Assembly: GCA_964510025.1 (NCBI GenBank)
Contig: CAZDZV010000001.1
Location: 63,949 to 127,948, forward strand
Direction: 5' to 3'
Length of the DNA: 64,000 nucleotides
Origin: an uncultured Methanosarcinales archaeon
Lineage (GTDB): Archaea > Nanobdellota > Nanobdellia > Woesearchaeales > DATDXC01
Shown here: positions 14,848 through 48,452 of the stretch, one piece after another
Position numbering within the stretch: position 1 is the stretch's first letter
Layout of the letters: every line of letters starts with the position of its first letter
The notes under the pieces: model-generated
The model's input: only the letters and a program-made list of their open reading frames with translations
Told to the model about the DNA's origin: nothing
The model's database searches: none
Made by a program: the position numbers and the translations under genes

Positions 14848-14851
14848 GGTA

Positions 14852-27754: not shown

Positions 27755-28357
27755 ATGAGCGAAGAGAATAAACTTTTGGTATCGCAGGACCTGTATCTGA
27801 AATCAGGCATACATATTGGAACAAAGTTCAGGACTAAATACATGGAGCAGTTCATATATAAGACCAGGCCTGATGGATTATCTGTCCTGAATCTCCAGAA
27901 GATAGATGAAAGAATAAGCATAGTTGCCAGTCTATTAGCACACTACAAGCCTGAGGAAATCCTGATAGTATCCAGAAGAGAAAACGGATGGAAAGCTGTT
28001 AAGGAATTTGGAAAGGTCACTGGCATAAAGGTTGTAGCCGGCAGATATCCTCCGGGAATGCTGACCAATCCTGCACTGGAGATTTATCATGAGGCAAAAA
28101 TAATAATGGTTACAGACTCGTGGCCTGACAGAAATGCAATATTAGATGCAAATCAGATAGGCATCCCGGTAATTGCACTATGCGACACCAACAACCAAAG
28201 CAACAACATAGATCTTGTGCTGCCATGTAACAATAAGGGAAAGAAAAGCCTTGGCCTCCTATTCTGGATCCTCGCAAGAGAATATCTGAGAAAAAAAGGC
28301 ATCATAGGTGAAAATGAAGACCTTAAGGAAAAGATTGAGGATTTCACAGAGGATTAA
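27755..28357 (+). CDS. rps2: Ribosomal protein uS2
   Basis: LLVSQDLYLKSGIHIGTKFRTKYMEQFIY. Archaeal-size at 200 aa. Confidence 0.85.
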   Translation: MSEENKLLVSQDLYLKSGIHIGTKFRTKYMEQFIYKTRPDGLSVLNLQKIDERISIVASLLAHYKPEEILIVSRRENGWKAVKEFGKVTGIKVVAGRYPPGMLTNPALEIYHEAKIIMVTDSWPDRNAILDANQIGIPVIALCDTNNQSNNIDLVLPCNNKGKKSLGLLFWILAREYLRKKGIIGENEDLKEKIEDFTED

Positions 28358-29325
28358 ATAAGCTTTATCAGGTCTTTTATGGCTTTTTCTAAATCTTTTT
28401 TTTCAAAAAGTACCTTATACACCTGGGATGTAAGAAGCATCTCAATATCATTTTTTTTGCTGAATTCATAGACAGATTTGGCTGTTGTTATACCCTCTGC
28501 TATCATACCGTGCATATCTTCCTTGATTTCTTCAAATTTTTTTCCTTGGGCTATGCGGCGCCCGACAAATCGATTTCTGCTATGCTTGCTGGTGCATGTA
28601 GCAATTAGGTCCCCTACACCAGCTAATCCATAGATAGTCTTTCGTTTTGCCCCAAAAAATCTGCCGAACTTGTTCATCTCTGTCAAACCATAAGTTATTA
28701 TGGCGCCTTTGGCATTATCTCCAAAACCAAGTCCGTCGACAACGCCGCTTGCTATCGCGGTGATGTTTTTTATGGCTCCGCATATCTCTACACCTATTAT
28801 GTCATCATGCGGATAAACCTTGAAGTATGCGGTTTCCAGGCTTGGTTTGATCTTTTGCAGCATCTCCTGGTCTTCTGATGCTATTGTGGTTGCTGTTGGT
28901 ATTTTGCGTGCTACTTCTTCACAGTGGTTTGGTCCGGAAAGCGCAACTATCTCAGCTTTTCCTAGCTCTTCACCCAAAACCTGGCTCATCCGCTTATATG
29001 TTGATTGCTCTATGCCTTTAGCTACACTTACTATTATCGAATTTTTGCCTATGTAAGGAGCAAAATCTCTTGCAGTATGCCTCATGAATTGAGATGGCAC
29101 GGCAAAGATGATCATATCGGCTCCCTTAGCTAAACTGTAATCGTTAGCCAGAAGAAGCTTATCTGAAAGCTTGATGCTGGGCAGGAACCAAGTATTTACC
29201 CTGTCTTTTTTCATTATATCCAGCAGCTCTTTTTCCCTAATCCACAGGCTAACTTCATTCTTTTCTGACAGCATATTGGCTAATGTAGTGCCCCAGCCTC
29301 CTGCGCCAACCACTGTTATTCTCAT
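28354..29325 (-). CDS. gpsA: NAD(P)H-dependent glycerol-3-phosphate dehydrogenase (bacterial GpsA type)
   Basis: MRITVVGAGGWGTTLA Rossmann start, and a GpsA-like layout along the full 323 aa. Confidence 0.8.
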   Translation of the reverse strand: MRITVVGAGGWGTTLANMLSEKNEVSLWIREKELLDIMKKDRVNTWFLPSIKLSDKLLLANDYSLAKGADMIIFAVPSQFMRHTARDFAPYIGKNSIIVSVAKGIEQSTYKRMSQVLGEELGKAEIVALSGPNHCEEVARKIPTATTIASEDQEMLQKIKPSLETAYFKVYPHDDIIGVEICGAIKNITAIASGVVDGLGFGDNAKGAIITYGLTEMNKFGRFFGAKRKTIYGLAGVGDLIATCTSKHSRNRFVGRRIAQGKKFEEIKEDMHGMIAEGITTAKSVYEFSKKNDIEMLLTSQVYKVLFEKKDLEKAIKDLIKLI

Positions 29326-29972
29326 TTGAAGTTATACTCCTGGTTTGTCAGCTTACCTATCTCCTTCATGACTTTTGTGGTTATTTTTCTTAGAGCGGCA
29401 TAATCGTTCTCTTTTCCGTAATAATCCTGAAAATACATTAATCTACCTATATGCATGTCTGCCTTTTTAAACCTTGGTATAAGTTTTCCTTTTGGGAGTA
29501 TGCTAAAGGTCCCCCTTAACCCTACTGGCAGAACAGGTACCCTTGCGTTCAAAGCAAGCCTTGCCACTCCTGTCTTCGCCCTTAGCAGCTTTCCTGTCAT
29601 CGACCTAGTGCCTTCTGGATGCAAGGATATAATCTTCCCCTGCTTTAGGGCCTTGATGGCCCAGACAACTGCCTCTTTCCCCCCTTTTTCACGGTCTACG
29701 GGTATTGCGTCTGCCCACCTGTGGAATGCTTTTTTTAGCGGACTGTCAAAATGCTCTTTTTTGGCAAGAAAATGGATGCGCTTATTAAGATAGTTGATAA
29801 ATACTGTAGAGATAATAAGATGGTCCATATATGATGCATGATTAGCAGCGATTATGAAACCCCTGTCTTTTGGAATATTTTCGAGCCCGGTAATCTTCCT
29901 AATATAAGGGGACATTAACACCTTAAAAACTCGTTTCCCTATTTCATGTACCATTCTAATACCTATATTCAA
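29322..29972 (-). CDS. 1-acyl-sn-glycerol-3-phosphate acyltransferase family (PlsC-like)
   Basis: HX4D motif ANHASYMDHL, FPEGTRS motif, and a PVLPVG block. Confidence 0.75.
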   Translation of the reverse strand: MNIGIRMVHEIGKRVFKVLMSPYIRKITGLENIPKDRGFIIAANHASYMDHLIISTVFINYLNKRIHFLAKKEHFDSPLKKAFHRWADAIPVDREKGGKEAVVWAIKALKQGKIISLHPEGTRSMTGKLLRAKTGVARLALNARVPVLPVGLRGTFSILPKGKLIPRFKKADMHIGRLMYFQDYYGKENDYAALRKITTKVMKEIGKLTNQEYNFK

Positions 29973-30603
29973 GGCCTGCCAGTCCTGCGATCCTCTCCAT
30001 TATTACCCTAGTAACATGATTCAATACCCGCTGGCTCTTCTCTTTTCCAAAATATTTGTTAAGGTGCATAGGTCTTCCAATATTTATTTCACATCGCTTA
30101 AATCCAGGAACCTTCGCTCCCTTAGGCATTATCTCATGGGTGCCTACAGAGCCGATTGGAATTACAGGAACCTGGGCTGTCAGGGCAAGTTTTGCTACGC
30201 CTGTCTTTGCTTTCATCAGGCTACCATCAATCGACCTATGACCTTCTGGAAATATGCCCACTATCTCTTTTTTCTTCAAGCAATGCAAAGCGAGCTGAAA
30301 TGCTTTTTCGTTTATTCTTTTTGCCTCTGCAGTTGATTCATCCACACGGACAGGGATGCATCTCCCCCATTCAAGAAATTTTCTTAAAAAAAAGTTTTTG
30401 TAGAAACGATCGTTGCAGTACATATGCACATATCTATTCAGATAATTCATCAACAAAGTAGGCAAAATCAGATCATCGGCAAAACTTCCATGGTTGGCAG
30501 CGAATATAAATACCGGCTCCTTGAGCTTTTCCAATCCATTAACCTTTCTTATCCAAAGCCTCACAGCTGGTACCAGACTAATTCTAGCAATAGGATAGAC
30601 CAT
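29956..30603 (-). CDS. 1-acyl-sn-glycerol-3-phosphate acyltransferase family (PlsC-like), second copy
   Basis: HX4D motif ANHGSFADDL, FPEGHRS, PVIPIG. It overlaps the previous gene. Confidence 0.75.
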   Translation of the reverse strand: MVYPIARISLVPAVRLWIRKVNGLEKLKEPVFIFAANHGSFADDLILPTLLMNYLNRYVHMYCNDRFYKNFFLRKFLEWGRCIPVRVDESTAEAKRINEKAFQLALHCLKKKEIVGIFPEGHRSIDGSLMKAKTGVAKLALTAQVPVIPIGSVGTHEIMPKGAKVPGFKRCEINIGRPMHLNKYFGKEKSQRVLNHVTRVIMERIAGLAGLEYRY

Positions 30604-31769
30604 TATTCTTTAAGCTCTTTGATTAGCGCTTCCAAAAATTGCTTGGCATCTGCAACAATACCGTAATCCGCTATTGAAAAAATCATAGCATTAGGATCCT
30701 TATTTATAGCAACAATGATTTCTGAATTCTGCATGCCCGCCCTATGCTGTATTGCCCCTGAAATACCACAGGCAATATACATTCTTGGGCGGACGGTCTT
30801 TCCGGTCTGGCCTACTTGATGATCTTTGGAAATCCATCCTTCATCTACCACTGCCCTTGAAGCTCCTACTTCAGCACCCAGCAAAGAAGCCAGCTCTTCC
30901 AGTAATTTGAAATTTTCTTTCTTACACAGCCCCCTCCCACCTGAGACGATAATCTTGGCATCATCCAAATTTGCCTTTTTCTTCTGACCTTTGATAATAT
31001 TGACAATCTTTGTCTTGCTGTCTTTATCTGTTATTTTGGCATCAACTTTGATAATCTTTCCTTCTCTTTTTTCATCCTTTGGACAAATCTCAAATATTCC
31101 CGGCCGCACTGTTGACATCTGGGGGCGGTGCTTAGGACATTTAATCTGTGCCATTATATTGCCGCCAAATGCAGGTCTTGTCTGTAAAAGCAGGCCGTCG
31201 TTGTCAATATCCAAACCTGTACAGTCTGCAGTCAATCCTGTATCGATACGCTGCGCAATCCGGGGGGCTAAGTCCCGCCCGATATTGGTGGCGCCATATA
31301 TCACTATCTGGGGATTTTCTTTTTGTATTAGTTCAGATATGACCTTTGCATATGGATCCGTCCTGTAGTCTTTAAGCTGCTTGTTTTCAAACAGGTAGAC
31401 TTTATCTGCGCCATGCTGGATCAGCTGCTCAGACAAAGAATCCTGCTTTTCACAGGCAAGCACAGCTCCTACCTGCACATTTAGTTTTTGTGCAAGCGCT
31501 CTTGCCTTACCCAGAATCTCAAATGATACTCTTGATATCCTATTATTTCTCTGCTCTGCAAATATCCAGACCTCATCTCCATCCTTTCTCTTCTGTTTTG
31601 CAGGCTTTACCGTGTAAACCTCGACGTATCTATTGTCTATTGCATTTTGCAGATCCAGCGAATCGCTTACGTCAGCATAATCGTCTCCCTTATTAAGGAC
31701 TACCCCGTTTATAGTAAGCGAAAATCCCGGATAATCATCTTTTAGTCTAACTTTTACCATTTCAATCAA
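30603..31769 (-). CDS. etfA: Electron transfer flavoprotein alpha subunit
   Basis: C-terminal FAD block IVAINKDPNAMIFSIADYGIVAD. It carries an N-terminal extension of about 70 aa. Confidence 0.8.
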   Translation of the reverse strand: MIEMVKVRLKDDYPGFSLTINGVVLNKGDDYADVSDSLDLQNAIDNRYVEVYTVKPAKQKRKDGDEVWIFAEQRNNRISRVSFEILGKARALAQKLNVQVGAVLACEKQDSLSEQLIQHGADKVYLFENKQLKDYRTDPYAKVISELIQKENPQIVIYGATNIGRDLAPRIAQRIDTGLTADCTGLDIDNDGLLLQTRPAFGGNIMAQIKCPKHRPQMSTVRPGIFEICPKDEKREGKIIKVDAKITDKDSKTKIVNIIKGQKKKANLDDAKIIVSGGRGLCKKENFKLLEELASLLGAEVGASRAVVDEGWISKDHQVGQTGKTVRPRMYIACGISGAIQHRAGMQNSEIIVAINKDPNAMIFSIADYGIVADAKQFLEALIKELKE

Positions 31770-32550
31770 ATTTCTGGATCATTTCTTTTTGCTTAAACTC
31801 ATCAATAAGCTTTGTGGCCATCTCCTTAACATTTCCCTTGAGCATCTCGCCGGGTGATTTTGCACTGGGAGTGAATGTCTTCTTCACTTTGGTTGGGCTT
31901 GACTTAATTCCTACCTTGCTATCCTGTACATTAATGTCCTTGGCAGACCAAATGACCATCTCTTTTTCAAATGACTTATCTATCCCCTCTAGGGTAGGAT
32001 ATCCCGGATCATTCAGATTGGCTGTGCATGTCAGCAAAACCGGAAACTTTGACTCAATTATCTCATATCCATCTTCCAGTTCCCTTTCAGCAACCACCTT
32101 TTCCCTTTCAACACTTATTTTCTGCACGTAAGTTATCTGGGGTATATCCAAAGACTCCGCAAGCTGGGGCCCGACCTGGGCTGTATCGCCGTCAATCGCT
32201 TGCCTCCCACAAAGCACCATGTCATAGTCTTTTATCTTATTTATTGCTGCAGCCAGGGCGTTTGCCGTTGCCCAGGTATCTGAACCGGCAAACTTAATGT
32301 CTGAAAGGAGAATCGCCTGGTCAGCGCCCATAGCAAGCGCTTCCCTCAGGGCATCTTCTGCTTGCGGCGGGCCCATCGTGATTACTGTGACCTTAGATTT
32401 GTCCTTAATTCTAATTGCTTCTGCTATTGCATTTTTGTCCTCTGGGTTGATTATGGTGGGGACACCTTCCCTTATCAAACGGCCTGTTTTGGGATCTATC
32501 TTAACCTCTGTTGTATCGGGCACCTGTTTAATGCAGACAATAATGTGCAT
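31762..32550 (-). CDS. etfB: Electron transfer flavoprotein beta subunit
   Basis: MHIIVCIKQVPDT start typical of EtfB. 262 aa. Confidence 0.8.
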   Translation of the reverse strand: MHIIVCIKQVPDTTEVKIDPKTGRLIREGVPTIINPEDKNAIAEAIRIKDKSKVTVITMGPPQAEDALREALAMGADQAILLSDIKFAGSDTWATANALAAAINKIKDYDMVLCGRQAIDGDTAQVGPQLAESLDIPQITYVQKISVEREKVVAERELEDGYEIIESKFPVLLTCTANLNDPGYPTLEGIDKSFEKEMVIWSAKDINVQDSKVGIKSSPTKVKKTFTPSAKSPGEMLKGNVKEMATKLIDEFKQKEMIQKFD

Positions 32551-32551
32551 C

Positions 32552-33706
32552 TTAGAAACCCCTACCGAGCAGCTGTGCAGCTATAACCAGGCGCTGAATC
32601 TCGCTAGTGCCCTCATATATCTCCGTAATCTTGGCATCCCTGTAAAGACGCTCTAAAGGATAATCCTTCATATAACCGTAACCTCCATGAATCTGGATTG
32701 CTTTCCGGGTAACATCCATTGCTACCTCCGATGCGAACAGTTTAGCCATAGCTGCTTCTTTTATGTATTTCTTCTTCTGATCTTTGAGATATGCTGCCCT
32801 GAAACAAAGGAGCCTGGCTGCCTCTATCGATGTGGCCATGTCTGCAAGCATAAACTGAATCGATTGGAACTTGTGCAACTTCCTTTTAAACTGTTCCCTT
32901 TCATTCACATATTTCAGTGATTCCTCATATGCAGCCTGGGCTATGCCAACTCCTTGCGCGCCTATTCCGATTCTTCCTGAATCTAAGGTCCACATCGTCT
33001 GCATAAATCCCCTTCCTTCAATACCTCCAATAAGGTTGGCTTGGGGCACGCGCATATCCTGAAAGATTATCTCTGATGTATTGCTGCCTCTAAGGCCTAG
33101 CTTGTCTTCCTTTTTCCCTACACTGAAGCCTGGAGTCTTTTTTGGCTCGACTATAAAAAGTGAAATGCCCTTATAGCCCGCGCTTTTATCTGTCATAGCA
33201 ACAATATTTATAAGATCGGCCACCCCGCCGTTGGTGATAAAAATCTTGCTCCCGTTTATTATAAATTCATCCTTGTCTTTCACTGCTGTCGTCTGAACAT
33301 TTGATGCATCGCTTCCTGCATTCGGTTCAGTCAGGGCAAAAGCCCCAAGATATTTACCTGAAGCAAGCAAAGGCAGAAATTTCCTTTTCTGTTCTTCTGT
33401 ACCGTAATTTACTATCGGGCCGCAGGCCAAGCTTGTATGGGCCCCCATCGTCACCGCGGTTGCGTTGCATGCTCGCGACATCTCCTCCATTATTATTGTC
33501 TGAGAAACAGCATCCAGCTCGGCCCCCTTATACTTCTTGGGTATCGACATGCCCATTATTCCTAGCTGTGAAAGCTTCTTGATCTGCTCTGAAGGAAAAA
33601 TCTCTCTCTGATCAGCTTCAGCGGCAAAGGGCTTAACTTCCTTTTCCGCGAACGCATGGATCATGCTTTTTATCATCAACTGCTTTTTAGTAAAGCTAAA
33701 GTCCAT
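32552..33706 (-). CDS. Acyl-CoA dehydrogenase (butyryl-CoA dehydrogenase-like)
   Basis: ACAD N-terminal, middle and C-terminal domains. Catalytic Glu in YEGTSEIQ. 384 aa. Confidence 0.85.
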   Translation of the reverse strand: MDFSFTKKQLMIKSMIHAFAEKEVKPFAAEADQREIFPSEQIKKLSQLGIMGMSIPKKYKGAELDAVSQTIIMEEMSRACNATAVTMGAHTSLACGPIVNYGTEEQKRKFLPLLASGKYLGAFALTEPNAGSDASNVQTTAVKDKDEFIINGSKIFITNGGVADLINIVAMTDKSAGYKGISLFIVEPKKTPGFSVGKKEDKLGLRGSNTSEIIFQDMRVPQANLIGGIEGRGFMQTMWTLDSGRIGIGAQGVGIAQAAYEESLKYVNEREQFKRKLHKFQSIQFMLADMATSIEAARLLCFRAAYLKDQKKKYIKEAAMAKLFASEVAMDVTRKAIQIHGGYGYMKDYPLERLYRDAKITEIYEGTSEIQRLVIAAQLLGRGF

Positions 33707-33719
33707 TGTTTCCCCCCGA

Positions 33720-34454
33720 TTAAATCATCATCGCACCATCTACACGAATTACCTGGCCCGAGATATATCTGGCGCTGTCTGATGCAAGAAATACCGCCAA
33801 GTCAGCAACATCCTTCGGCGTTCCCATCTCCCTAAAGGATATAATCTCAAGTATCTTATCTAACATGACAACAGGTATCTTTTCTGTCATCCTGCTTTTT
33901 ATGAAACCAGGAGCGATGGCATTGACTGTTATTTTATGCTTTCCCACTTCCTTAGCCAATGATTTTGTAAATCCAATAATACCTGCTTTAGTTGCAGCAT
34001 AATTACACTGCCCAAAATTTCCGCCAAGGCCCACGACAGAGGATATGTTAATAATCCTTCCTCCCTCAGGTATCAGGGGTAGCATGTTATGGGTAACATT
34101 ATAGATTCCTGTTAAATTAACATTAATAACAGCGTTCCATTCCTCGGGCGTCATTTTTTTCAGTGTCCTGTCCTTTGTTATCCCTGCATTATTGATGAGA
34201 ATATCAACTTTCTTATGCTTGTCCTTTATTTCTTCTGCCATAGATTTGCAGTCTTCAAAATTAGATACATCAGCCGTCACGACGTAGGCCTCTACACCGA
34301 GATCCTTAAGCTCTGCTGCGAATGAGTTCGCCTGATTTTCAGCTGATTTAATGTCATTTATAATGATATTTACCCCTTGTTTAGCTAGTTCTAGAGCAAT
34401 GGCCTTTCCAATGCCCTGAGAAGCACCAGAAATCAAAGCAAATTTTCCTTTCAT
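33720..34454 (-). CDS. 3-oxoacyl reductase (FabG-like SDR)
   Basis: Rossmann ISGASQGIGKA, NNAG, and a YxxxK catalytic motif. Start taken at the internal MKGKFALISGAS. Confidence 0.8.
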   Translation of the reverse strand: MKGKFALISGASQGIGKAIALELAKQGVNIIINDIKSAENQANSFAAELKDLGVEAYVVTADVSNFEDCKSMAEEIKDKHKKVDILINNAGITKDRTLKKMTPEEWNAVINVNLTGIYNVTHNMLPLIPEGGRIINISSVVGLGGNFGQCNYAATKAGIIGFTKSLAKEVGKHKITVNAIAPGFIKSRMTEKIPVVMLDKILEIISFREMGTPKDVADLAVFLASDSARYISGQVIRVDGAMMI

Positions 34455-34738
34455 TAAATCACCCAAAAAAAAAGAAATTGTGAGCATATTTAAATTTTTC
34501 TAAACGTTAGATTTATAAATAAGTCTTGAATTCAATTCCCCATGAGCAATAGATACTACAGCAACAGATTGAGAAAAATAGAAAAGAAAAAGCTCAAGGT
34601 CAGAAGAAGAAAAAGCAGACCAAAATCTTTTAAGACAGAGGAAGCCGCCAGAAAATGGGCGGAATCTAACAAGATTAAAAAATATGTCCTGAAAGACCTG
34701 AAAACAGGGGATAAGAAGAAGATTATAGTGGTAGCTGA

Positions 34739-40468: not shown

Positions 40469-40476
40469 ATGAGCAC

Positions 40477-41010: not shown

Positions 41011-41104
41011 AGTGTAATTTATTTATATAATTTTCGTAAAATGACAAGCTATATGCATCACGAAAACGAATAGTTTAAATAACACTTTATAACCCTATGT
41101 AGTC

Positions 41105-42955
41105 ATGAAAAAGAAAGGAAAAATAGAGAAATTGCTTAACAATTCACTGATGAAAATTGTGCAGGGCTACAGACTGTTTAGAAGAACACTTAAAAAAACA
41201 AAACAGGCTATGCCTGAGGTTTATGGCCAGATAGATAATGTTCTCAAGCAGAATCTCGTTACCTTTGAAAGAAACAACCAGAGCTTCTCTGATGCGATTG
41301 TTGACAGGCTTATCAGAAAGCTCCCAACTTTAGGTGAGGAGAAGCTGACCAAAATAATAAACGGCGGTTCTTCAAAGTCTTTTTTTGATATGCTAAATAA
41401 GAGCCTCGGAGCGACCCTGGAAGAGGAGAAAGACTATACAAAGCTGGAAAAAGAAAAGCTGTTTAACAGCATCCTTATAGCTAACAGGGGAGAGATCGCC
41501 CTTAGGATCATAAGAGCTTGTAAGGAACTAGGAATCAAAGTCTATGTGATTTACTCCAAACCTGAAAAAAATACACTTTTTGTCAAATTTGCAGATAAGG
41601 CTTATTGCATTGGAAACCCCAGAGACTATCTGAACATCAGGAAGATAATCAAAATAGCCAAAAAAGCAAAAGCAGATGCTATACATCCTGGATATGGATA
41701 CTTATCTGAAAATTCCCAGTTTGCCAAGCTTTGCCTAAAAAACAAAATAAACTTTATAGGACCGAATATCAAGGCACTAGAGCTTATGGGCAACAAGGTT
41801 AAAGCCAGAAAGATAATAAGCAAAATGGGAATAAATGTTATAGCAGGAACAGTCACTCCCCTTAAAAATCTGGAAGACGCACAGTCAGCTGCCCAGGAAA
41901 TCGGCTATCCTGTTATATTGAAGGCCGCTTTGGGCGGCGGCGGCAAGGGCATGCGAGTTGTCTATTCAGGGGATAAGCTTGAAACGGCATTCAAAAGCGC
42001 CTCAACTGAAGCGCAAGCTGCATTTGGTGATCATTCTTTATATATGGAAAAATACATAGAAAAACCAAAGCATATTGAGTTTCAGATTTTGGCAGATAAA
42101 TTCAAGAATATTGTCCATTTGGGAGAAAGAGACTGCAGCATACAAAGAAGGCATCAGAAGCTTATTGAAGAGGCTCCGTCAACGGTATTGAATGGGAAAT
42201 TAAGAGAAAAAATTGGAAAAGATGCCAGAAGAATAGCCTCCAAAATAGGGTATAAGGGTGCTGGAACAGTTGAGTTCCTGCTAGATAAGAGAAAAAATTA
42301 TTATTTTATGGAAATGAACGCGCGTATACAGGTAGAACATGGAATAACTGAGATGATAAGCGGGGTAGATCTTGTTAAGGAGCAGATAAGAATCGCCGCC
42401 GGAGGCAAGCTTACCTATAAACAGGAAGATATCAAGCTCAACGGGTGGGCTATAGAGTGCAGGATAAATGCTGAGAACCCGTTTGATGATTTTAAACCTA
42501 GCACTGGCATTGTCACTAATTATTTACCTCCAGGTGGCCGTGATATACGTATATCAAGCCATTCGTACACAGGGCATGTCATATCTCACCATTATGATCC
42601 GCTCATCTCAAATCTTATATGCGGGGGTAAGAACAGAAATGAGGCAATCGCCAGAATGAAGAGGGCGCTTGAAGAATATATTATCGAGGGCGTACAAACC
42701 AATATCCCTTTTCATAAGCTAGTAATGCAAGATAAGGATTTTATCAAAGGCAATATAAGCACAGATTTTATAGAAAAAAATAAAATAATTGAAAAGCTGA
42801 GAAAGCACAAGATTAGGAAAAAAGAGCTTTCAAAAAAGGAAAAATTACTCATAATAACGACAGCTGTATCCAGATATATGGAGGGCAGAGAGAATGATGC
42901 TCCGGACAACTGGGTTATCGCAGGTAGGCAGGAACAGCTAAATCAAAATGTTTAG
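41105..42955 (+). CDS. accC: Biotin carboxylase (acyl-CoA carboxylase subunit) with N- and C-terminal extensions
   Basis: NSILIANRGEIALRIIRA and the ATP-grasp GGGGKGMR motif. An N-terminal extension of about 110 aa is not present in canonical AccC. Confidence 0.8.
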   Translation: MKKKGKIEKLLNNSLMKIVQGYRLFRRTLKKTKQAMPEVYGQIDNVLKQNLVTFERNNQSFSDAIVDRLIRKLPTLGEEKLTKIINGGSSKSFFDMLNKSLGATLEEEKDYTKLEKEKLFNSILIANRGEIALRIIRACKELGIKVYVIYSKPEKNTLFVKFADKAYCIGNPRDYLNIRKIIKIAKKAKADAIHPGYGYLSENSQFAKLCLKNKINFIGPNIKALELMGNKVKARKIISKMGINVIAGTVTPLKNLEDAQSAAQEIGYPVILKAALGGGGKGMRVVYSGDKLETAFKSASTEAQAAFGDHSLYMEKYIEKPKHIEFQILADKFKNIVHLGERDCSIQRRHQKLIEEAPSTVLNGKLREKIGKDARRIASKIGYKGAGTVEFLLDKRKNYYFMEMNARIQVEHGITEMISGVDLVKEQIRIAAGGKLTYKQEDIKLNGWAIECRINAENPFDDFKPSTGIVTNYLPPGGRDIRISSHSYTGHVISHHYDPLISNLICGGKNRNEAIARMKRALEEYIIEGVQTNIPFHKLVMQDKDFIKGNISTDFIEKNKIIEKLRKHKIRKKELSKKEKLLIITTAVSRYMEGRENDAPDNWVIAGRQEQLNQNV

Positions 42956-43637
42956 CATCTTCTTTTATAAGAAAATAGGTTCTACAAATTCCAAAGCTAA
43001 GACAATGCCCAAGCATGGCACTGTGATAGTGGCTCAGGAACAGACAGAAGGCAGGGGCAGATTTAAAAGAGAATGGTTTTCAGAAAAAGGGGGCCTATAC
43101 TTCTCTGTGGTCTTAAGGAGTGACAAGGTTGCCAATTTAAGATTTCTTACCTTCATGGCAGCTATTGCCCTGCACAAAGCTGTCAAGGAGCACTATGGTT
43201 TAAAATGCACGATAAAATGGCCCAATGATTTGATGATTGGCAAAAAAAAGCTAGCCGGCATCTTAACTGAGAGTATTATTGGGAATAAGGTAGTTGCCAT
43301 AATTGGCATCGGGATAAATACCAACAATGCGTTGCCTTCCGGTATCAGAGCTGAATCCTTATCAAGAATTCTAAAGAGGAAGATAAATAATAGAAAGCTA
43401 CTGCAGATATTCTTACACAATCTAGAGGAATATCTTAAGCTAGTGGACAATGGGAAACATGGTAGAATAATATCTGACTGGAAAAGAAGATCCTTTCTTG
43501 GCAGCGAAGTCAGGGTTTGCAGTCTGAAAGGAGAATACACAGGAATAGCCTATAATGTCAACGATGATTGCTGCCTTGTTCTCAAGAAAAACAATAAATA
43601 TACTGTTATTGAGGAAGGAGACGTATACATATGCTAG
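42948..43637 (+). CDS. birA: Biotin--protein ligase
   Basis: GRGRFKREWFSEKGGLYFSVVL and KWPNDLMIGKKKLAGIL BPL motifs. Confidence 0.75.
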   Translation: MFSIFFYKKIGSTNSKAKTMPKHGTVIVAQEQTEGRGRFKREWFSEKGGLYFSVVLRSDKVANLRFLTFMAAIALHKAVKEHYGLKCTIKWPNDLMIGKKKLAGILTESIIGNKVVAIIGIGINTNNALPSGIRAESLSRILKRKINNRKLLQIFLHNLEEYLKLVDNGKHGRIISDWKRRSFLGSEVRVCSLKGEYTGIAYNVNDDCCLVLKKNNKYTVIEEGDVYIC

Positions 43638-45088
43638 ACATGTTCGATTTCTGTATGATTTGATATTTCCGAATTTGTAGTGCATAAATCAGCTACAGTC
43701 AAGCTATGGATATCTTCATTTCCGGTCATTCTTGCAAAAGTCTCTAGTTCCTGCCTAACAACGTTGAGAAAGTTCTCAAGCCTTTTCGCACTTTTATCTA
43801 TGTCAAGTCTTTGCCTTAGCTTTTCATCATGGGTGGTAACGCCAACCGGACAGTTGTTTGTATTGCATACGTTATATTGCTGACATGCACACGCCATTAA
43901 GGCGGCAGTGCCAATAGCTATTGCATCTGCCCCTAATGCAAGAGCCTTAACAAAGTCAGAAGGAACTCTCAGTCCGCCGGTTATATGGAGGCTGATATCT
44001 TTTACATCATGCTCATCAAAATATTTTTTTGCCCTGTAGAGTGCATAGATTGTAGGCACAGATGAGGAGTCCTTAATCGATTTAGGAGATGCGCCAGTGC
44101 CGCCCGGCCTTCCATCAATGGTGATAAAGTCAGGCTCGGCGTAGACTGCTATTTGCAGATCATCCTCAATATGGCCTGCGGCGATCTTAATCCCAATCGG
44201 AGCACCTTCAGACTTGTCCCTCAACCACTTCACCTTTTTCTTGAGATCTTCCTTATTTTTTATATCATTGAAACTTGCTGGACTTTCTATATAGTGCCCT
44301 TTCTCAGATCCCCTAATCTGAGCTATCTCTTCTGTAACTTTATCCGCAGGCATTTCCCCGCCTAGTCCTGGTTTTGTGGATTGCCCAATTTTGATCTCAA
44401 TTCCATCAACATTCTTCAGGTTTTCGTCTGTTACGCTGTAGGCGTTCGGAACATATTCAAAAATATATTTATAAGCGCTTTTTCTTGAATCCTCCAAGAT
44501 GCCGCCCTCACCTGAACACATTGCTGTTTTGACTGCTGCCGAGCCTTTAGCCAGTGCTATCTTCACTTCCCTTGATAAGGCTCCGAAAGACATGTGCGTT
44601 ATATAAACAGGAAAGGAAATTTGAATGGGCTTTTTTGCCTTCTTTCCGATTATCGTCGTCAAATTAACTTTTTTATCCTTATTGAGAGGGATCTTTGCCA
44701 GCTGTGCGCCCTTGATGAGGATATCATCCCAAGAAACAACATGTTTTTTGGTGCGCATAGGCTCTGTTACAGATTTTCCGGTCCTGGCCACCTCATGAAT
44801 AAAATCCATCCATTTCTCTGTTTTATCATTTTGCCTCGTCCACTGAGAAAGATAATCATCCTGAGGCTCTTCCTTTTTCCCCTGCATATCATCATAATTC
44901 TTTTTCTTTTCCTGAAATTCCTTACCACTAATTTCTTTCAGATTCTCCCTGGATGCGCCGCAAACAGGACACCTCCAATCATCAGGAAGCTCCTCTTTAG
45001 TCACCCCCCTATCAATGCCTGCATTCTGATCCCCTATCTCAGAATCAAATACAAATACGTTGCATACTGTACAGATGTATTTGCTCAT
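43634..45088 (-). CDS. Rubredoxin-fused glutamate synthase-like FMN domain protein (archaeal GltB-domain 2 family)
   Basis: N-terminal CTVC...CPVC rubredoxin knuckles, then a GltS FMN/Fe-S domain (GGTGASP, CxxxC cluster). Confidence 0.7.
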   Translation of the reverse strand: MSKYICTVCNVFVFDSEIGDQNAGIDRGVTKEELPDDWRCPVCGASRENLKEISGKEFQEKKKNYDDMQGKKEEPQDDYLSQWTRQNDKTEKWMDFIHEVARTGKSVTEPMRTKKHVVSWDDILIKGAQLAKIPLNKDKKVNLTTIIGKKAKKPIQISFPVYITHMSFGALSREVKIALAKGSAAVKTAMCSGEGGILEDSRKSAYKYIFEYVPNAYSVTDENLKNVDGIEIKIGQSTKPGLGGEMPADKVTEEIAQIRGSEKGHYIESPASFNDIKNKEDLKKKVKWLRDKSEGAPIGIKIAAGHIEDDLQIAVYAEPDFITIDGRPGGTGASPKSIKDSSSVPTIYALYRAKKYFDEHDVKDISLHITGGLRVPSDFVKALALGADAIAIGTAALMACACQQYNVCNTNNCPVGVTTHDEKLRQRLDIDKSAKRLENFLNVVRQELETFARMTGNEDIHSLTVADLCTTNSEISNHTEIEHV

Positions 45089-45585
45089 CTTATCTCCTTA
45101 AACTGGGATTTTTTCGCTCCGCAGATTGGGCAGGTATCTGGAGCATCAGCTTCAACAGTGTTTCCACAGACCTGGCATACAAATACCCTCTCTTGGTTCA
45201 GATCTCTCTCTGATTCCAGCGCTTCCAGTGCTTTCTTATACAGTCCTGCATGTATCTCTTCAACTTTATTTGCCCTAAAAAAAGATATATGGGCATCCTG
45301 GTGTTTATCGTCTTTAGCATCCTGAATCATCCCAGGGTACATGTTCTGGAACTCATGGGTTTCCCCCTCTATCGCTTCTTTTAGATTTTGCTTCGTAGAT
45401 CTAATCCCGCCCATTGCTTTTAGGTGCTCGATTGCGTGGACAGTCTCGGCATCAGCTGCGGCCCTAAAAAGTTTTGCAATTTCCTTTAACCCCTCCTTCT
45501 CCGCCTGATCGGCAAAAGCAATATATTTTCTGTTTGCCTGACTCTCTCCGGCAAATGCTTTTTTTAGATTTCCTTCAGTTTTCAT
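45085..45585 (-). CDS. rbr: Rubrerythrin
   Basis: EGNLKKAFAGESQANRKY diiron domain plus C-terminal CQVCG...CPICG. Start taken at MKTEGNL. Confidence 0.75.
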   Translation of the reverse strand: MKTEGNLKKAFAGESQANRKYIAFADQAEKEGLKEIAKLFRAAADAETVHAIEHLKAMGGIRSTKQNLKEAIEGETHEFQNMYPGMIQDAKDDKHQDAHISFFRANKVEEIHAGLYKKALEALESERDLNQERVFVCQVCGNTVEADAPDTCPICGAKKSQFKEIR

Positions 45586-45623
45586 CCTTCGCCCCCGAAT
45601 GCCACAAATAGCAAACATCCTAG

Positions 45624-46055
45624 TTAAGTGCGTGACTTATTTAAAGCTAGTGCTTTTGCATTAAAAATTTTTTTTACATCATCCGGAACCGGAACAGGCT
45701 CCATATCCTTATTGATGAAAACATTTACCGTGTATGCCTCTGCAATAATCTCCCTGCTTGACTTGTTGAAGACCTTATAGATAAATTTAATGCTGGAATT
45801 CCCGATTTTCGAGACCGCAGTCTCCAAGACTACGATATCGTCATATCCGACGGGCTTGCGGTAATTTACTTTAATTTCAACTACAGGAGCAAAAAAGCCT
45901 TTCTTCTCCAGCTCAGCGTATGATATGCCACGGTTACGCAATATCTCTGTCCTGCCCGCCTCAAACCAGTCCAGATAGCGAGCATAATAGACTACCCCGA
46001 AATGATCGGTATCAGAATACCTCACCCGATGCTCTGTAATATCTTTCATATACAT
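45624..46055 (-). CDS. Acyl-CoA thioesterase (YbgC/4HBT hotdog)
   Basis: HRVRYSDTDHFGVVYYARYLDWFEAGRTE matches the 4HBT signature. Confidence 0.7.
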   Translation of the reverse strand: MYMKDITEHRVRYSDTDHFGVVYYARYLDWFEAGRTEILRNRGISYAELEKKGFFAPVVEIKVNYRKPVGYDDIVVLETAVSKIGNSSIKFIYKVFNKSSREIIAEAYTVNVFINKDMEPVPVPDDVKKIFNAKALALNKSRT

Positions 46056-46127
46056 ATTAGCAAGATGCGCATGTTTATTACTCTTTGCTTTTTAATTAGT
46101 GTACTGCTGTATAATAATCTTTAAATA

Positions 46128-46400
46128 TTGACATGTATTCTTAGCTTTAGAATGCCCTGGCTAAAAAAGGTCCCTTTGCTCAAAAAGATATTCGAGTTTG
46201 GATATACTATGCTTCTTATAATAATATTAAGCGCGATTTCTGGACTGATACTGGCTTTTCCTGTTATGTGGCTGTGGAACTTTGTATTTCAAAGAATGAA
46301 TGAAGCTTTACATATCAATGTATTTCAAGCCTGGGCGCTCAATGTACTAACAGGCATACTATTTGGCTATAAGAATACCAGTTCGAAAAATGATAGATAA
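46128..46400 (+). CDS. Small hypothetical membrane protein
   Basis: 90-aa ORF with two hydrophobic segments. No homology recognised. Confidence 0.25.
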   Translation: MTCILSFRMPWLKKVPLLKKIFEFGYTMLLIIILSAISGLILAFPVMWLWNFVFQRMNEALHINVFQAWALNVLTGILFGYKNTSSKNDR

Positions 46401-46529
46401 AGAATTGTCCGAACTTGCATCTTATTTTGAAGAGACCGCCCTAATCGAGGAAGGCAAGAAGATGTGCAGACTGCTAGCAAAAAAAGGGGTTAAGATAAGA
46501 GAGCACAAGTGGACAGAACTTGAAGCTTC

Positions 46530-46913
46530 TTAGTTGATTACCATAAGGACATCGTCCTTATCAACATTCTGATTCTTCTTGACACGTATCTCTTTGATGG
46601 TGCCTGACTTATCTGCAACCAAGTTGTTTTCCATCTTCATCGCCACTATGGTTGCCAGAGAGTCCCCTGCCTTGACCTTTTCTCCAACTTTTACGTTGAT
46701 AGCCACAACCGTGCCTGGGAGGGGGGCCTTAATGATGTCTTTGGACCTATCGTCATGGTCGTCTGTGTCCTCAAGAAAAATCTGCTCTTGCTTTTGTTTG
46801 GTCTCTACCTGATAGAGGTTCCCTTCAAAACGGATAAGAATCTTTCCGTTTCCAACTTCTTCGATGTTTACAGCATATTCTTTTCCGTCTAAATTAACTA
46901 TAATCTCTTGCAT
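46530..46913 (-). CDS. Biotin carboxyl carrier protein
   Basis: Biotinyl-lysine motif IVAMKMEN in a lipoyl/biotinyl hybrid-barrel context. 127 aa. Confidence 0.75.
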   Translation of the reverse strand: MQEIIVNLDGKEYAVNIEEVGNGKILIRFEGNLYQVETKQKQEQIFLEDTDDHDDRSKDIIKAPLPGTVVAINVKVGEKVKAGDSLATIVAMKMENNLVADKSGTIKEIRVKKNQNVDKDDVLMVIN

Positions 46914-46916
46914 TTC

Positions 46917-48452
46917 TTAAAGAGGCATATTACCATGCTTCTTGGGCGGCCGCTTATCCCTTTTGTTAGCTATAATCTTGAGAATCCGAATGAGTGTCTT
47001 TCTTGTGTCTCTAGGCTCAATTATAGCATCCACCTTGTTCTGCGATGCTGCCAAATATGGATTCAGAAATTTTTCGGAGAATTCCCTTATCTTCTGGCTG
47101 CGCATTTTAGCAGGATTCTTAGACGAGCTGACCTCTTTTCTGTGAATAATCTTGACAGCCTGTTCTGCCCCCATAACAGCTATTTCCGCACTGGGCCAAG
47201 CAATAACCTTATCGTAACCCATCTCCTTTGATACCAGGGCGATATATGCGCCGCCGTATGCCTTTCTCATAACCAGACTTATCTTAGGCACTGTTGCTTC
47301 TGAATAAGCGTACAATATCTTTGCACCATGTCTAATTATGCCGTTATGCTCCTGGTCTGATCCAGGCAGATACCCTGTAACATCGACAAGGTTGATTAGC
47401 GGTATATTAAAGGCGTCACAGAACCTGACAAATCTGGATATCTTATCTGAACTGTCGATGTCAAGGCAGCCTGCGAGTACACAGGGCTGGTTTGCCACTA
47501 TCCCGACAACATCATTATTAAGCCTGGCAAAACCTACAACGACGTTTTGGGCATAATCTTTCTGTACCTCAAAAAATGAATTCTTGTCAAAGATCTCATT
47601 TACAACTTTTTTAACGTCATAACTTTTTCTGGAATCAGAGGGCACAATCTTTTCAAGCATCTCGTTGGTCCTCTCTGGATTATCGTTCATATTAATCAAT
47701 GGCGGATTTTCTAGATTATTGTTTGGTAGGTAGCTTAGCAATTTCTTGATTTTCAGTATACATGCCTTTTCGTCATCTGATATAAAATGTGCCACCCCAC
47801 TCTTGGAGCTATGAATCTGCGCTCCTCCCAGCCCGTTAAGGTCTATATTTTCCTTTGTAACGCTCTTCACAACATCAGGACCAGTAATGAACATATAACT
47901 TGTTTTGTTTACCATAAATGTAAAATCAGTAAGGCTCGGGCTGTATACCGCTATACCGGCACACGGCCCCATAATAGCTGAAATCTGAGGAACCACCCCG
48001 GATGCCAGCATGTTCTTTAGAAATATGGATCCGCCTCCATCCAAGCTGTTTATCCCTTCCTGGATCCTTGCTCCTCCGGAATCAAGAAGACCGACCACAG
48101 GCGCTCCATTCTTAAGGGCCAGTTCAAATATCTCCACTATTTTCTTGTTGTGCATCTCGCCCATGGAACCGCCCACAAACGAGAAATCCTGCGAGTATAC
48201 ATAAACAGGCCTATGGTTGATCGTCCCGTATCCGGTTACTACACCATCCCCTAATTTTTTTTTCTGTTGAAGGCTAAAATTTTGACTTTGCAGCTCTGCA
48301 AAGGCACCAATCTCGACAAAAGAGCCAGGGTCAACAAGCAACCCAATCCGTTCACGTGCGGTCAACTTGCCTTTCTGATGCTGTATCTTGATGGCACCTT
48401 CATCCTCAAGCGCCTTCACCTTTTTAGCAAATATTTTTGTCTTATCCGGCAT
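46917..48452 (-). CDS. Acyl-CoA carboxylase carboxyltransferase subunit (AccD/PccB-like)
   Basis: 511 aa with two crotonase-like halves. Motifs SMGEMHNKKIVEI and GGAYIAL are typical of PccB/MmdA. Confidence 0.85.
   Translation of the reverse strand: MPDKTKIFAKKVKALEDEGAIKIQHQKGKLTARERIGLLVDPGSFVEIGAFAELQSQNFSLQQKKKLGDGVVTGYGTINHRPVYVYSQDFSFVGGSMGEMHNKKIVEIFELALKNGAPVVGLLDSGGARIQEGINSLDGGGSIFLKNMLASGVVPQISAIMGPCAGIAVYSPSLTDFTFMVNKTSYMFITGPDVVKSVTKENIDLNGLGGAQIHSSKSGVAHFISDDEKACILKIKKLLSYLPNNNLENPPLINMNDNPERTNEMLEKIVPSDSRKSYDVKKVVNEIFDKNSFFEVQKDYAQNVVVGFARLNNDVVGIVANQPCVLAGCLDIDSSDKISRFVRFCDAFNIPLINLVDVTGYLPGSDQEHNGIIRHGAKILYAYSEATVPKISLVMRKAYGGAYIALVSKEMGYDKVIAWPSAEIAVMGAEQAVKIIHRKEVSSSKNPAKMRSQKIREFSEKFLNPYLAASQNKVDAIIEPRDTRKTLIRILKIIANKRDKRPPKKHGNMPL

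Follow-up and report, generated by a model that had tools for sequence, protein, structure and literature searches.

The 64,000-nucleotide stretch of contig CAZDZV010000001.1 analysed here (hereafter the window) comes from an uncultured archaeon and carries a minus-strand run of about 13 genes, from 41010 down to 28354, in which enzymes of acyl-chain elongation stand next to enzymes of glycerolipid assembly. The run begins with FabZ and ends with GpsA, in the order FabZ, thiolase 2, a DUF362 protein, the alpha, beta and gamma subunits of an oxidoreductase, thiolase 1, a short-chain dehydrogenase/reductase (SDR), an acyl-CoA dehydrogenase (ACAD), the electron-transfer flavoprotein (Etf) subunits EtfB and EtfA, PlsC-b, PlsC-a and GpsA. 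Gene identities were taken from an open reading frame (ORF) listing combined with Pfam and NCBIfam profile scans with curated cut-offs, which recovered in place every gene that a first-pass annotation of the sequence had named between 28354 and 48452. Besides the window of ~64 kb, the visible sequence comprised ~20 kb from each of 16 relatives, whose loci (labelled L003, L006 and so on) were found in a scan of one genome per GTDB species, and onto which the window proteins were mapped by tblastn. The taxon labels of homologs from metagenome-assembled genomes (MAGs) are those given by the depositors. We propose, with moderate confidence, that this operon couples a CoA-based elongation cycle, in effect a reverse beta-oxidation, to bacterial-type acylation of glycerol-3-phosphate (G3P).

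The intergenic distances in the run range from -17 to +13 nt. Two spacings fall outside this range: thiolase 1 and the SDR are separated by 251 nt, and a 91-nt overlap arises artefactually from the start codon of an over-long ORF for the oxidoreductase beta subunit. EtfA overlaps PlsC-b by 1 nt, PlsC-b overlaps PlsC-a by 17 nt and PlsC-a overlaps GpsA by 4 nt. These stop-start overlaps indicate that the redox and lipid-assembly enzymes are co-transcribed, and probably translationally coupled. Comparison with the relatives revealed a conserved core of S2|GpsA-PlsC-PlsC-EtfAB-Bcd-FabG-thiolase-DUF35/DUF362-thiolase-FabZ|biotin carboxylase, a gene order common to the 16 species-level relatives. 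The order EtfA-EtfB-ACAD-SDR-thiolase 1-(oxidoreductase)-DUF362-thiolase 2-FabZ|biotin carboxylase recurs wherever the contig of a relative extends that far. In four loci (L003, L013, L014 and L016), the GpsA-PlsC-PlsC-SDR-thiolase-DUF362-thiolase-FabZ core is kept without ACAD-Etf at the site. Such an arrangement is far beyond chance.

The last gene of the run encodes GpsA (28354-29325, minus strand as are all genes of the run), an NAD(P)H-dependent sn-glycerol-3-phosphate dehydrogenase that matches PF01210, PF07479 and PF20618, with both GpsA domains present, and passes NF000942 with 389 bits against a cut-off of 257. From its family membership, the product is predicted to be the sn-3 stereoisomer. 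GpsA is present in all 16 related loci at 54-71% identity. A bacterial relative, 46% identical, sits in the classic der-plsY-gpsA context; in bacterial relatives the partner of gpsA is plsY, whereas in the window that place is taken by two PlsC-type enzymes compatible with acyl-CoA. PlsY needs an acyl-phosphate made from acyl-ACP (ACP, acyl carrier protein), whereas PlsC-type enzymes can use acyl-CoA. The replacement of PlsY by PlsC-type enzymes is thus in keeping with the lack of ACP in the window and the 16 loci. The closest GpsA beyond the Woesearchaeales, with 52% identity, belongs to a cluster (P0241; L018 and L019) whose named members are MAGs of Promethearchaeota (Asgard) on contigs of at most 3 kb.

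Of the two acyltransferases, PlsC-a (29322-29972; PF01553, E = 4e-30) is the canonical-looking lysophosphatidate/glycerol-phosphate acyltransferase, and its sole PDB match is the PlsC of Thermotoga maritima (TmPlsC; 5kym, E = 5e-22). Its clade keeps NHxSYxDH, LAKkE, IPxDR, PEGTR and VPvxP, which cover all classical acyltransferase motifs. PlsC-b (29956-30603; PF01553, E = 3e-21) is a divergent paralog with 39% identity to PlsC-a, the orthologs of which keep HX4D and PEGxR, with a degenerate motif II that lacks the K/R and no DR motif. The signature segments in the window read NHASYMDH, PEGTRS and VPVLPVG in PlsC-a, and NHGSFADD, PEGHRS and VPVIPIG in PlsC-b. Across 15 orthologous PlsC pairs, the HX4D motif, the EGTR-type motif III and the proline-containing motif IV are conserved. 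Both paralogs occur in 15 of the 16 related loci, and their retention as a pair in 15 genomes argues for two different steps. The canonical motif II of one and the degenerate motif II of the other suggest that their acceptors differ. PlsC-b is a candidate for the first-step (GPAT-like) or a lysolipid acyltransferase. The simplest assignment for the pair would be acylation of G3P and then of lysophosphatidate.

The condensing part of the operon consists of two archaeal-type ketothiolases, thiolase 1 (34739-35863; PF22691, Thiolase_C_1) and thiolase 2 (39344-40468; PF22691, PRK06064), which share 52.5% identity as well as the conserved nucleophilic Cys and GHP His. The best PDB matches of thiolase 1 are 7yvy and 6esq, followed by BbsB; 6esq is the thiolase of the thiolase/HMG-CoA synthase (HMGCS)/DUF35 complex of M. 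thermolithotrophicus. Thiolase 2 also matches the M. thermolithotrophicus-type acetyl-CoA acetyltransferase family. In L003, a protein resembling ketoacyl-ACP synthase (KAS) III and HMGCS (307-1326, plus strand) adjoins a thiolase upstream of the lipid cluster, and could be a mevalonate-type HMGCS or an alternative condensing enzyme.

Adjacent to thiolase 2 lies a two-domain protein (38215-39351) that, by fold search, consists of an N-terminal zinc-ribbon/OB domain of DUF35 type and a C-terminal LarA-fold domain. The first ~100 residues contain a CxxC...CxxC zinc ribbon together with an OB fold. The protein was aligned with its homologs (40 sequences), and its AlphaFold model is confident, with a pLDDT of 89 and a pTM of 0.89. 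The C-terminal DUF362 domain adopts a LarA-like fold. DUF362 and the LarA N-domain family DUF2088 are placed in one Pfam clan, and DUF362 is uncharacterised (PMC11770544). As no histidine is invariant across the 40 aligned homologs, a LarA-like mechanism appears doubtful, and the assignment of this domain as a LarA-type racemase with a nickel-pincer nucleotide was not adopted for want of conserved histidines. A few DUF362 homologs are ~485 residues long, with an extra ~110 residues. The first-pass annotation had placed a DUF35-type partner beside the thiolases; this partner is real, but as the N-terminal domain of the DUF362 protein and not as a separate ORF. The separate candidate (34500-34763, 87 residues) is of low complexity, has no Pfam match and has no homolog in any relative. 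Because the thiolase/DUF35 part is archaeal-type, the module is better described as a hybrid than as the bacterial-type set it had been taken for, a label that suits GpsA, PlsC, FabG, FabZ and Bcd-EtfAB.

The two reactions that follow condensation are assigned to an SDR and a dehydratase. The FabG-like SDR, a 3-oxoacyl reductase (33720-34487, with the true start probably at the Met at 34454; PF13561, PF00106), passes the FabG subfamily model NF009466 with 262 bits against a cut-off of 222 and reaches 292.5 bits on TIGR01830 (cut-off 297.75), with a visible S...YxxxK motif. FabZ (40477-41010; PF07977), a (3R)-hydroxyacyl dehydratase and the first gene of the operon, scores 122 bits on the equivalog model NF000582 (cut-off 113); its top PDB matches are all FabZ, and the His and Glu of GHF...EG are present. 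FabG- and FabZ-type enzymes share (3R) stereochemistry.

A three-subunit 2-oxoacid:ferredoxin oxidoreductase (35853-38222), which the first-pass annotation had not listed, lies inside the operon. The alpha subunit (37170-38222; PF01855, PF17147) is of VorB type (2-ketoisovalerate class) and scores 499 bits on the VorB subfamily model NF005507 (cut-off 399). The thiamine pyrophosphate-binding beta subunit (36382-37173; PF02775) belongs to PorB/KorB-type families, and the gamma subunit (35853-36392; PF01558) to PorC/KorC-type families. The beta-subunit ORF extends to 37260, but the start at 37173 is likelier, since the gene call in an identical Logan contig begins 4 nt before the alpha stop. Oxidoreductase genes are found at this position in only two to three of the 16 relatives, the gamma-subunit gene in three. 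This enzyme is a possible source of branched or straight primers, as judged by the class of its alpha subunit.

The slot for enoyl reduction is filled by a three-gene unit. The ACAD (32552-33706), which contains the three ACAD domains, is of butyryl-CoA dehydrogenase (Bcd) type and is our proposed enoyl-CoA reductase. Structural database search showed that its best match is the Bcd of the bifurcating Bcd-EtfAB of Clostridioides difficile (5ol2_C, E = 3.6e-138). EtfA, the large subunit (30603-31769), combines PF01012 with a PF00766 FAD-binding domain (E = 8e-40), whereas EtfB, the small subunit of bifurcating type (31762-32550), contains PF01012. The top PDB matches of EtfA are all bifurcating: CarE (6fah, 1e-106), 5ol2_A (8e-102), 7koe, 4kpu and LctC, compared to 5e-47 for human Etf. 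Likewise, EtfB matches CarD (6fah_B, 2e-89) and C. difficile EtfB (5ol2_B, 5e-83) far better than the human protein (6e-31), and it shares the stretch GRQAIDGDTAQVGPQ with C. difficile EtfB without a single difference. Taken over both subunits, five structurally characterised bifurcating Etfs (CarDE, C. difficile Bcd-Etf, and those of T. maritima and A. fermentans, and LctBC) give E-values of 1e-53 to 1e-106, against 1e-31 to 1e-47 for non-bifurcating ones. For EtfAB and the ACAD, the matches to such bifurcating complexes surpass those to non-bifurcating Etfs by at least 50 orders of magnitude. Judged by clade, the Etf is of the bifurcating (reductive) type. In such Bcd-Etf complexes, NADH reduces enoyl-CoA while ferredoxin is reduced, and the reductive direction is strongly exergonic.

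EtfA carries in addition a conserved N-terminal extension of ~66 residues, in which a ferredoxin domain like that of CarE is ruled out by the lack of cysteines. For Woesearchaeota of subgroup J, the Etf FAD-binding domain was said to be absent and bifurcation was doubted (Huang et al.; PMC8421398). The complete ETF_alpha FAD-binding domain of EtfA contradicts this remark, at least for the present genome. In the ACAD-Etf slot, L003 instead carries an SDR whose best solved relative is the human peroxisomal trans-2-enoyl-CoA reductase (PECR; 3.7e-55), compared to 1.8e-49 for the best FabG. This non-orthologous replacement by a PECR-like SDR supports an enoyl-reductase role of the slot, which is suggestive rather than decisive.

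Beyond FabZ lie the genes of an acyl-CoA carboxylase. The biotin carboxylase (BC; 41105-42955, plus strand; PF00289, PF02786, PF02785), transcribed divergently from the operon, scores 627.2 bits on the accC model TIGR00514 (cut-off 626.5) and has a conserved N-terminal extension of ~119 residues, and is followed by a BirA-type biotin-protein ligase (42948-43637, plus strand; PF03099). On the minus strand lie a YbgC/FadM-type acyl-CoA thioesterase (45624-46055; PF13279, PF03061; TIGR00051, 93.9 against 68.7), a biotin carboxyl carrier protein (BCCP; 46530-46913; PF00364) with the biotinylation motif AMKM, and a carboxyltransferase (46917-48452; PF01039, E = 2e-185). The best NCBIfam match of the latter is the mmdA subfamily model TIGR01117, with 761 bits below the cut-off of 999. 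The enzyme is of PccB/MmdA (12S) type, with acetyl- or propionyl-CoA as candidate substrates. BC adjoins FabZ in L013, L014 and L016 and the Bcd (ACAD) gene in L006, where the genes for carboxyltransferase, BCCP and thioesterase are also contiguous; BC and carboxyltransferase are conserved neighbours of the operon. By conserved proximity, the carboxylase (BC, BCCP, carboxyltransferase and BirA) and the YbgC thioesterase are associated with the operon. The window therefore holds a full biotin-dependent carboxylase set, including a BCCP with a biotinyl-lysine motif. The set had been suggested to supply malonyl-CoA, for which no consumer is visible.

Profile scans detected no ACP, KAS, FabD, PlsX/PlsY, geranylgeranylglyceryl phosphate synthase (GGGPS) or digeranylgeranylglyceryl phosphate synthase (DGGGPS) in any substantial ORF of the window, in agreement with the first-pass annotation, and tblastn with E. 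coli and B. subtilis ACP queries found no ACP in the window or the 16 related loci. Measured by ACP, malonyl-CoA:ACP transacylase and KAS, the window thus does not contain a bacterial type II fatty acid synthase. The two sizeable gaps in the module (34488-34738 and 46056-46529) hide no ACP either. They harbour two small ORFs on the opposite strand, a highly basic one of ~66 residues (34530-34742, plus strand) and one of ~90 residues with two transmembrane segments (46128-46400, plus strand), neither of which has a family match or is seen in the relatives.

Outside the operon, the window encodes an Lgt (11599-12369, minus strand; PF01790, E = 6e-64), the bacterial phosphatidylglycerol:prolipoprotein diacylglyceryl transferase, which moves the diacylglyceryl group from phosphatidylglycerol to lipoproteins. 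It scores 176 bits on TIGR00544 (cut-off 119) and keeps Y26, R143, N146, E151, G154 and R239 of the E. coli enzyme, with H103 replaced by Leu and E243 by Gly. In L003, Lgt (4641-5390) lies inside the operon, directly upstream of PlsC-b, and in L008 it is found (15734-16504) ~4 kb from the operon, where gpsA ends at 10975. A search returned 1324 Lgt homologs at E <= 1e-10, and the named ones among the top 120 are all from Woesearchaeota or Nanoarchaeia, groups in which the enzyme is widespread. Directly upstream of Lgt in the window is a multi-pass membrane protein of 247 residues (12366-13109, minus strand) with no Pfam match; the same protein (29% identity) stands beside Lgt in L008 (16506-17249), and may be a partner in lipoprotein processing. 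A lipobox regular-expression scan of the ORFs in the window, among only about 60 genes, found none. A recent paper states that no archaeal Lgt homologs are known (Hong et al., 2025; PMC12462473). The Woesearchaeales lineage appears to be an exception, which would be expected if the membrane contains diacylglycerol phospholipids.

The host of the module is archaeal, as the first-pass annotation had assumed, and belongs to the Woesearchaeales/Nanoarchaeota (DPANN). The flanks carry archaeal genes, including RadA, ribosomal protein S2, an S13-S4-S11-RpoD(Fe-S)-L18e-L13-S9 block and PolB (family B), in addition to Topo VI A/B, Endo dU and translin. The nearest named homologs of GpsA, the DUF362 protein and Lgt all come from MAGs labelled 'Candidatus Woesearchaeota', 'Nanoarchaeota' or 'Nanoarchaeia', and locus L006 belongs to the isolate YT1_767 of Woesearchaeota 'subgroup J' (Huang et al., 2021; PMC8421398). 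The many genes of bacterial affinity, including the flanking bacterial-type AspRS, LeuRS, queuine tRNA-ribosyltransferase (TGT) and Lgt, might raise the suspicion that assembly or binning had joined a bacterial fragment onto archaeal flanks. The G+C content of the module, overall and at third codon positions (GC3), is 0.428 and 0.434, compared to 0.408 and 0.414 for the flanks, a difference of less than one standard deviation. Moreover, the S2|GpsA junction is kept in 14 of the 16 relatives, independently assembled in different studies, with RadA, TRAM and LigT beyond it. Divergence of the module genes parallels that of the neighbouring housekeeping genes, as the GpsA identities across the loci scale with those of S2 (72-82%) and RadA (68-85%). 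Synteny of the core across 16 related species shows that the contig is no chimera; the check for one that the first-pass annotation had proposed came out negative, with no break in GC or GC3. Flat GC and GC3 together with synteny to archaeal S2, RadA, TRAM and LigT likewise rule out an island of horizontal gene transfer, and the probability of an artefact, already refuted by synteny, is negligible. We conclude that this archaeal clade has long carried the module and passed it on vertically.

Altogether, the locus provides insights into how an archaeon might assemble acyl-ester lipids. What follows is a scheme whose substrates, flux direction, complexes and product chain length we infer from family assignments, conserved catalytic motifs, synteny and the structure of the operon. 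The VorB-type 2-oxoacid:ferredoxin oxidoreductase would deliver acetyl-CoA or branched acyl-CoA primers, which the two thiolase paralogs, held by the DUF35 domain of the DUF35-DUF362 protein, would condense with acetyl-CoA. The resulting 3-oxoacyl-CoA would be reduced by the FabG-like SDR and, via the FabZ-type dehydratase, converted to enoyl-CoA. The Bcd-type ACAD and the bifurcating-type EtfAB would then use NADH to reduce the enoyl-CoA with concurrent reduction of ferredoxin, an exergonic step that could pull the otherwise unfavourable thiolase condensation. In parallel, GpsA would convert dihydroxyacetone phosphate (DHAP) to sn-glycerol-3-phosphate, and the two PlsC paralogs would acylate G3P and then lysophosphatidate from acyl-CoA, yielding phosphatidate. 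Further downstream, Lgt may anchor lipoproteins using the resulting diacylglycerol phospholipid. A lineage with such a coupled operon probably builds membrane lipids of bacterial style.

[quoted passage not shown] Both systems share an ACP-independent CoA-thioester chemistry, a DUF35-partnered archaeal-type thiolase, an SDR ketoreductase, a hot-dog-fold dehydratase and a dedicated enoyl-CoA reducing step, and neither uses KAS, FabD or ACP. The likeness to the ACP-independent route proposed for Archaea therefore holds, with DUF35-partnered thiolases, SDR, dehydratase and the enoyl-reducing step in one operon. However, the SDR, FabZ and Bcd-EtfAB are analogous and not orthologous to the Sulfolobus enzymes. 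Here, DUF35 is fused to the LarA-fold DUF362 and flanked by two thiolase paralogs; the ketoreductase and dehydratase are of bacterial FabG and FabZ types, whereas Sulfolobus uses its own SDR and a MaoC type; and enoyl reduction is assigned to a bifurcating-type Bcd-EtfAB, compared to an NADPH-dependent MDR enzyme. Moreover, the present genes share one operon with GpsA and two PlsC, a link to G3P ester lipids that Sulfolobus lacks.

The three-gene ACAD-EtfB-EtfA unit has the organization of the bifurcating Bcd-EtfAB complexes of C. difficile (5OL2) and A. fermentans (4KPU) and of CarCDE from A. woodii (6FAH). It shares with them the best sequence matches of all three subunits, the conservation of GRQAIDGDTAQVGPQ in EtfB, and an anaerobic, ferredoxin-based host. 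By contrast, it sits in a lipid-assembly operon and not in a butyrate (hbd-crt-bcd) or caffeate operon, and the extension of EtfA is cysteine-free, unlike the ferredoxin domain of CarE. Compared to the bacterial initiation of G3P phospholipids, the locus shares a bona fide GpsA, a PlsC-a with all four acyltransferase motifs whose only solved relative is TmPlsC, and the clustering of gpsA with acyltransferase genes. It differs from the bacterial GpsA plus PlsX/PlsY/PlsC or PlsB/PlsC systems in that PlsX, PlsY, PlsB and ACP are absent, and two small PlsC-type paralogs, presumably with acyl-CoA donors, stand where bacteria have plsY. The host also differs, being an archaeon that according to the literature lacks the archaeal glycerol-1-phosphate (G1P) pathway (PMC5059525, PMC8421398).

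Several observations weigh against our proposal. Head-group enzymes such as CdsA, PgsA and Pss were looked for without success, both in the window and in the sampled flanks of the 16 loci, where the ten best membrane-protein candidates proved to be transporters, a signal-peptide peptidase, PAP2-like and YdjM proteins and the like, with no CDP-alcohol transferase or prenyltransferase among them. The ACAD is closest to short-chain/butyryl-CoA dehydrogenases, so the cycle may stop at C4-C6, and in several relatives the available sequence shows no ACAD-EtfAB. Both acyltransferases score below the TIGR00530 cut-off of 102.95 (97.0 for PlsC-a and 52.2 for PlsC-b), although both comfortably exceed the Pfam gathering score; most of the two-helix membrane motif at the N-terminus of TmPlsC is missing from PlsC-a, and PlsC-b scores as high on Aas-type lysophospholipid acyltransferase models as on PlsC models. 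No enzyme that would use malonyl-CoA from the acyl-CoA carboxylase is visible, and the homologous thiolase of S. acidocaldarius did not use malonyl-CoA (bioRxiv 10.1101/2024.07.05.601840). In addition, on the prevailing view, DPANN archaea obtain lipids from their hosts or modify them (PMC11868695, PMC7242380). The capacity for ester-linked G3P phospholipids suggested in the first-pass annotation thus stands as a reasonable inference from the operon structure, tempered by the unseen CdsA and PgsA, the short-chain-like ACAD and the missing malonyl-CoA consumer.

Part of these observations would suit a lineage that salvages and remodels lipids. Fatty acids or lysolipids derived from a bacterial host or from detritus would be taken up, the PlsC pair would re-acylate lysophospholipids or build phosphatidate from scavenged chains, GpsA would supply or recycle the backbone, and the thiolases, SDR, FabZ and Bcd-Etf would merely trim, elongate or modify imported acyl chains. 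Such a role agrees with the PlsC scores and the unseen head-group enzymes, with the published view that DPANN archaea do not synthesize lipid building blocks and modify host lipids (PMC11868695, PMC7242380), and with a large secreted subtilase and other surface proteins in the window, which are typical of a scavenger. However, no FadD, acyl-ACP synthetase or phospholipase is found in the operon or the window, a complete four-step cycle with primer-supply and carboxylase genes exceeds the needs of remodelling, and the relatives belong to subgroup J, which is predicted to be host-independent (PMC8421398); we consider salvage rather unlikely. The same short-chain character of the ACAD, closest to C. 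difficile Bcd and other butyryl-CoA dehydrogenases, also fits a fermentative butyrate or short-chain acyl-CoA pathway that re-oxidises NADH and reduces ferredoxin for a hydrogenase or Rnf, in which case the adjacency to GpsA and PlsC would be a lineage-specific operon fusion without shared flux. EtfAB of bifurcating type and a 2-oxoacid:ferredoxin oxidoreductase within the operon are in line with this, as is an earlier study in which the Bcd-EtfAB of subgroup J was assigned, along with Rnf and [FeFe] hydrogenase, to energy and redox metabolism (Huang et al., 2021; PMC8421398). Yet canonical butyrate pathways use Hbd and crotonase, whereas here a FabG/FabZ pair and DUF35-partnered thiolases are present, and the window lacks butyrate kinase, phosphotransbutyrylase and CoA-transferase genes. 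Moreover, stop-start overlaps tie EtfA to PlsC-b, PlsC-a and GpsA, the core persists without ACAD-Etf at the site in the four loci named above, and BC and carboxyltransferase are conserved neighbours, which together leave a purely fermentative role distinctly unlikely. It should be pointed out that coupled lipid synthesis and fermentation are not exclusive, because a bifurcating reductase would let chain synthesis serve as a redox valve.

Running the cycle backwards, ACAD-EtfAB, the hydratase, the dehydrogenase and the thiolases would degrade lipid-derived fatty acids by beta-oxidation, with GpsA oxidising G3P to DHAP. Formally, each of the four reaction types has a representative, and in principle the enzymes can run either way; the first-pass annotation had mentioned this direction as also possible. 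It is the weakest of these metabolic rivals, as the Etf falls in the bifurcating (reductive) and not the quinone-linked clade; neither an ETF:quinone oxidoreductase, nor FadD or another acyl-CoA synthetase, nor a crotonase-fold hydratase or HAD-type dehydrogenase was found in the window; and Woesearchaeota lack respiratory chains (PMC8421398). The acyltransferases, carboxylase and BirA are biosynthetic, and a PECR-like enoyl-CoA reductase fills the ACAD-Etf slot in L003, so that we regard beta-oxidation as very improbable. A bolder form of our own proposal of coupled lipid synthesis would be the wholesale replacement of the archaeal membrane, with diacyl-sn-G3P phospholipids made de novo by a hybrid ACP-free synthase, bifurcating enoyl reduction and Lgt-lipidated surface proteins, which we consider unlikely. 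If true, it would describe a natural archaeal lineage wholly on the bacterial side of the lipid divide, with a synthase architecture new to any domain and a lipid synthesis that doubles as ferredoxin-reducing redox metabolism.

Much of the gene set has been reported before. Woesearchaeota were found to possess GpsA and to lack G1P dehydrogenase (Yokobori, 2016; PMC5059525), and GpsA and PlsC were noted in DPANN (Coleman, 2019; PMC6431249). A 52-genome Woesearchaeota clade carries bacterial fatty acid synthesis genes, including G3P dehydrogenase, near genes of the methylerythritol phosphate (MEP) pathway (Castelle, 2021; PMC8204110); FabG, FabI, FabZ, the MEP pathway and a cyclopropane-fatty-acid synthase were reported as well (Zhang, 2024; PMC10936187), as were the presence of Bcd-EtfAB and the absence of GGGPS and DGGGPS in Woesearchaeota (Huang, 2021; PMC8421398). 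With neither G1P dehydrogenase (PMC5059525) nor GGGPS and DGGGPS (PMC8421398), another source of membrane lipids is needed. The novelty was overrated in the first-pass annotation, as GpsA without G1P dehydrogenase, PlsC, Fab genes and Bcd-EtfAB were already published for Woesearchaeota. These metagenomic reports, which cover Woesearchaeota, Marine Group II/III and Asgard archaea and include MEP genes elsewhere in the genome, list the genes singly, read Bcd-EtfAB as energy metabolism, and describe the archaea as unable to make membrane lipids or as modifying host lipids. In the literature searched, we found no earlier description of a single conserved operon, of an archaeal thiolase/DUF35 core with DUF35 fused to a LarA-fold DUF362, of Bcd-EtfAB in the enoyl-reductase slot, of two differentiated PlsC paralogs replacing PlsY beside GpsA, or of a true Lgt accompanying a lipid operon. 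An archaeon with bacterial-type lipid genes is as such not new, whereas the assembled operon and its logic appear to be.

The lipid divide between archaeal G1P-isoprenoid ethers and bacterial G3P-acyl esters occupies a key place in models of how early cells evolved and of eukaryogenesis, the latter requiring an archaeal lineage to have switched its membrane type. The present locus gathers scattered 'bacterial' genes into one coherent operon, in a clade predicted to be host-independent, that would cover primers, an ACP-free cycle, the G3P backbone and two acylations. A vague observation of gene presence thereby becomes a defined and directly testable set of about 13 genes, which makes the lipid divide tractable in a natural archaeon. 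It also offers a first functional context for the uncharacterised DUF362 family, as a putative partner of DUF35-dependent thiolases.

The remaining genes between and around these elements include a rubredoxin fused to a GltS-type FMN domain (43634-45088, minus strand; PF00301, PF01645), a flavoprotein that is absent from the equivalent region of L006 and probably stands outside the lipid module. The neighbouring rubrerythrin (45085-45618, minus strand; PF02915, PF21349) is absent from the related loci, and probably serves in protection against oxidative stress outside the module. Together with genes at 14482-18471, the segment 43634-45618 makes up an oxygen-defence set that is dense for an anaerobe, comprising desulfoferrodoxin, ferritin, nitroreductase, the rubredoxin-GltS-type FMN fusion and three rubrerythrin-family proteins (14852-15355, 17917-18471 and 45085-45618).

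Among the archaeal housekeeping genes of the flanks, an AspRS with a GAD insertion domain (21776-23545, plus strand) and a LeuRS with the bacterial-type editing domain PF13603 (52587-55232, plus strand) have a bacterial-type look. The bacterial-type TGT (19127-20344, plus strand) and two Vut_1/YhhQ-type transporters (10873-11577 and 21000-21713, both minus strand) match the bacterial queuosine system reported in DPANN (Castelle et al., 2021). Between RpoD and L18e, ARAGORN called a tRNA-Leu(GAG) at 50886-50969 (plus strand), for which Rfam gave no tRNA at the gathering threshold and, in a permissive search, a tRNA-Sec-like match of 19.6 bits, consistent with either a divergent tRNA or a false call. 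The segment 3724-10451 (minus strand) encodes a secreted subtilase (S8) of 1853 residues that contains thrombospondin-type repeats and, after it, a Kelch-repeat protein whose twin-arginine signal reads MDRRQFLRRAG...; both are probably surface or extracellular proteins.

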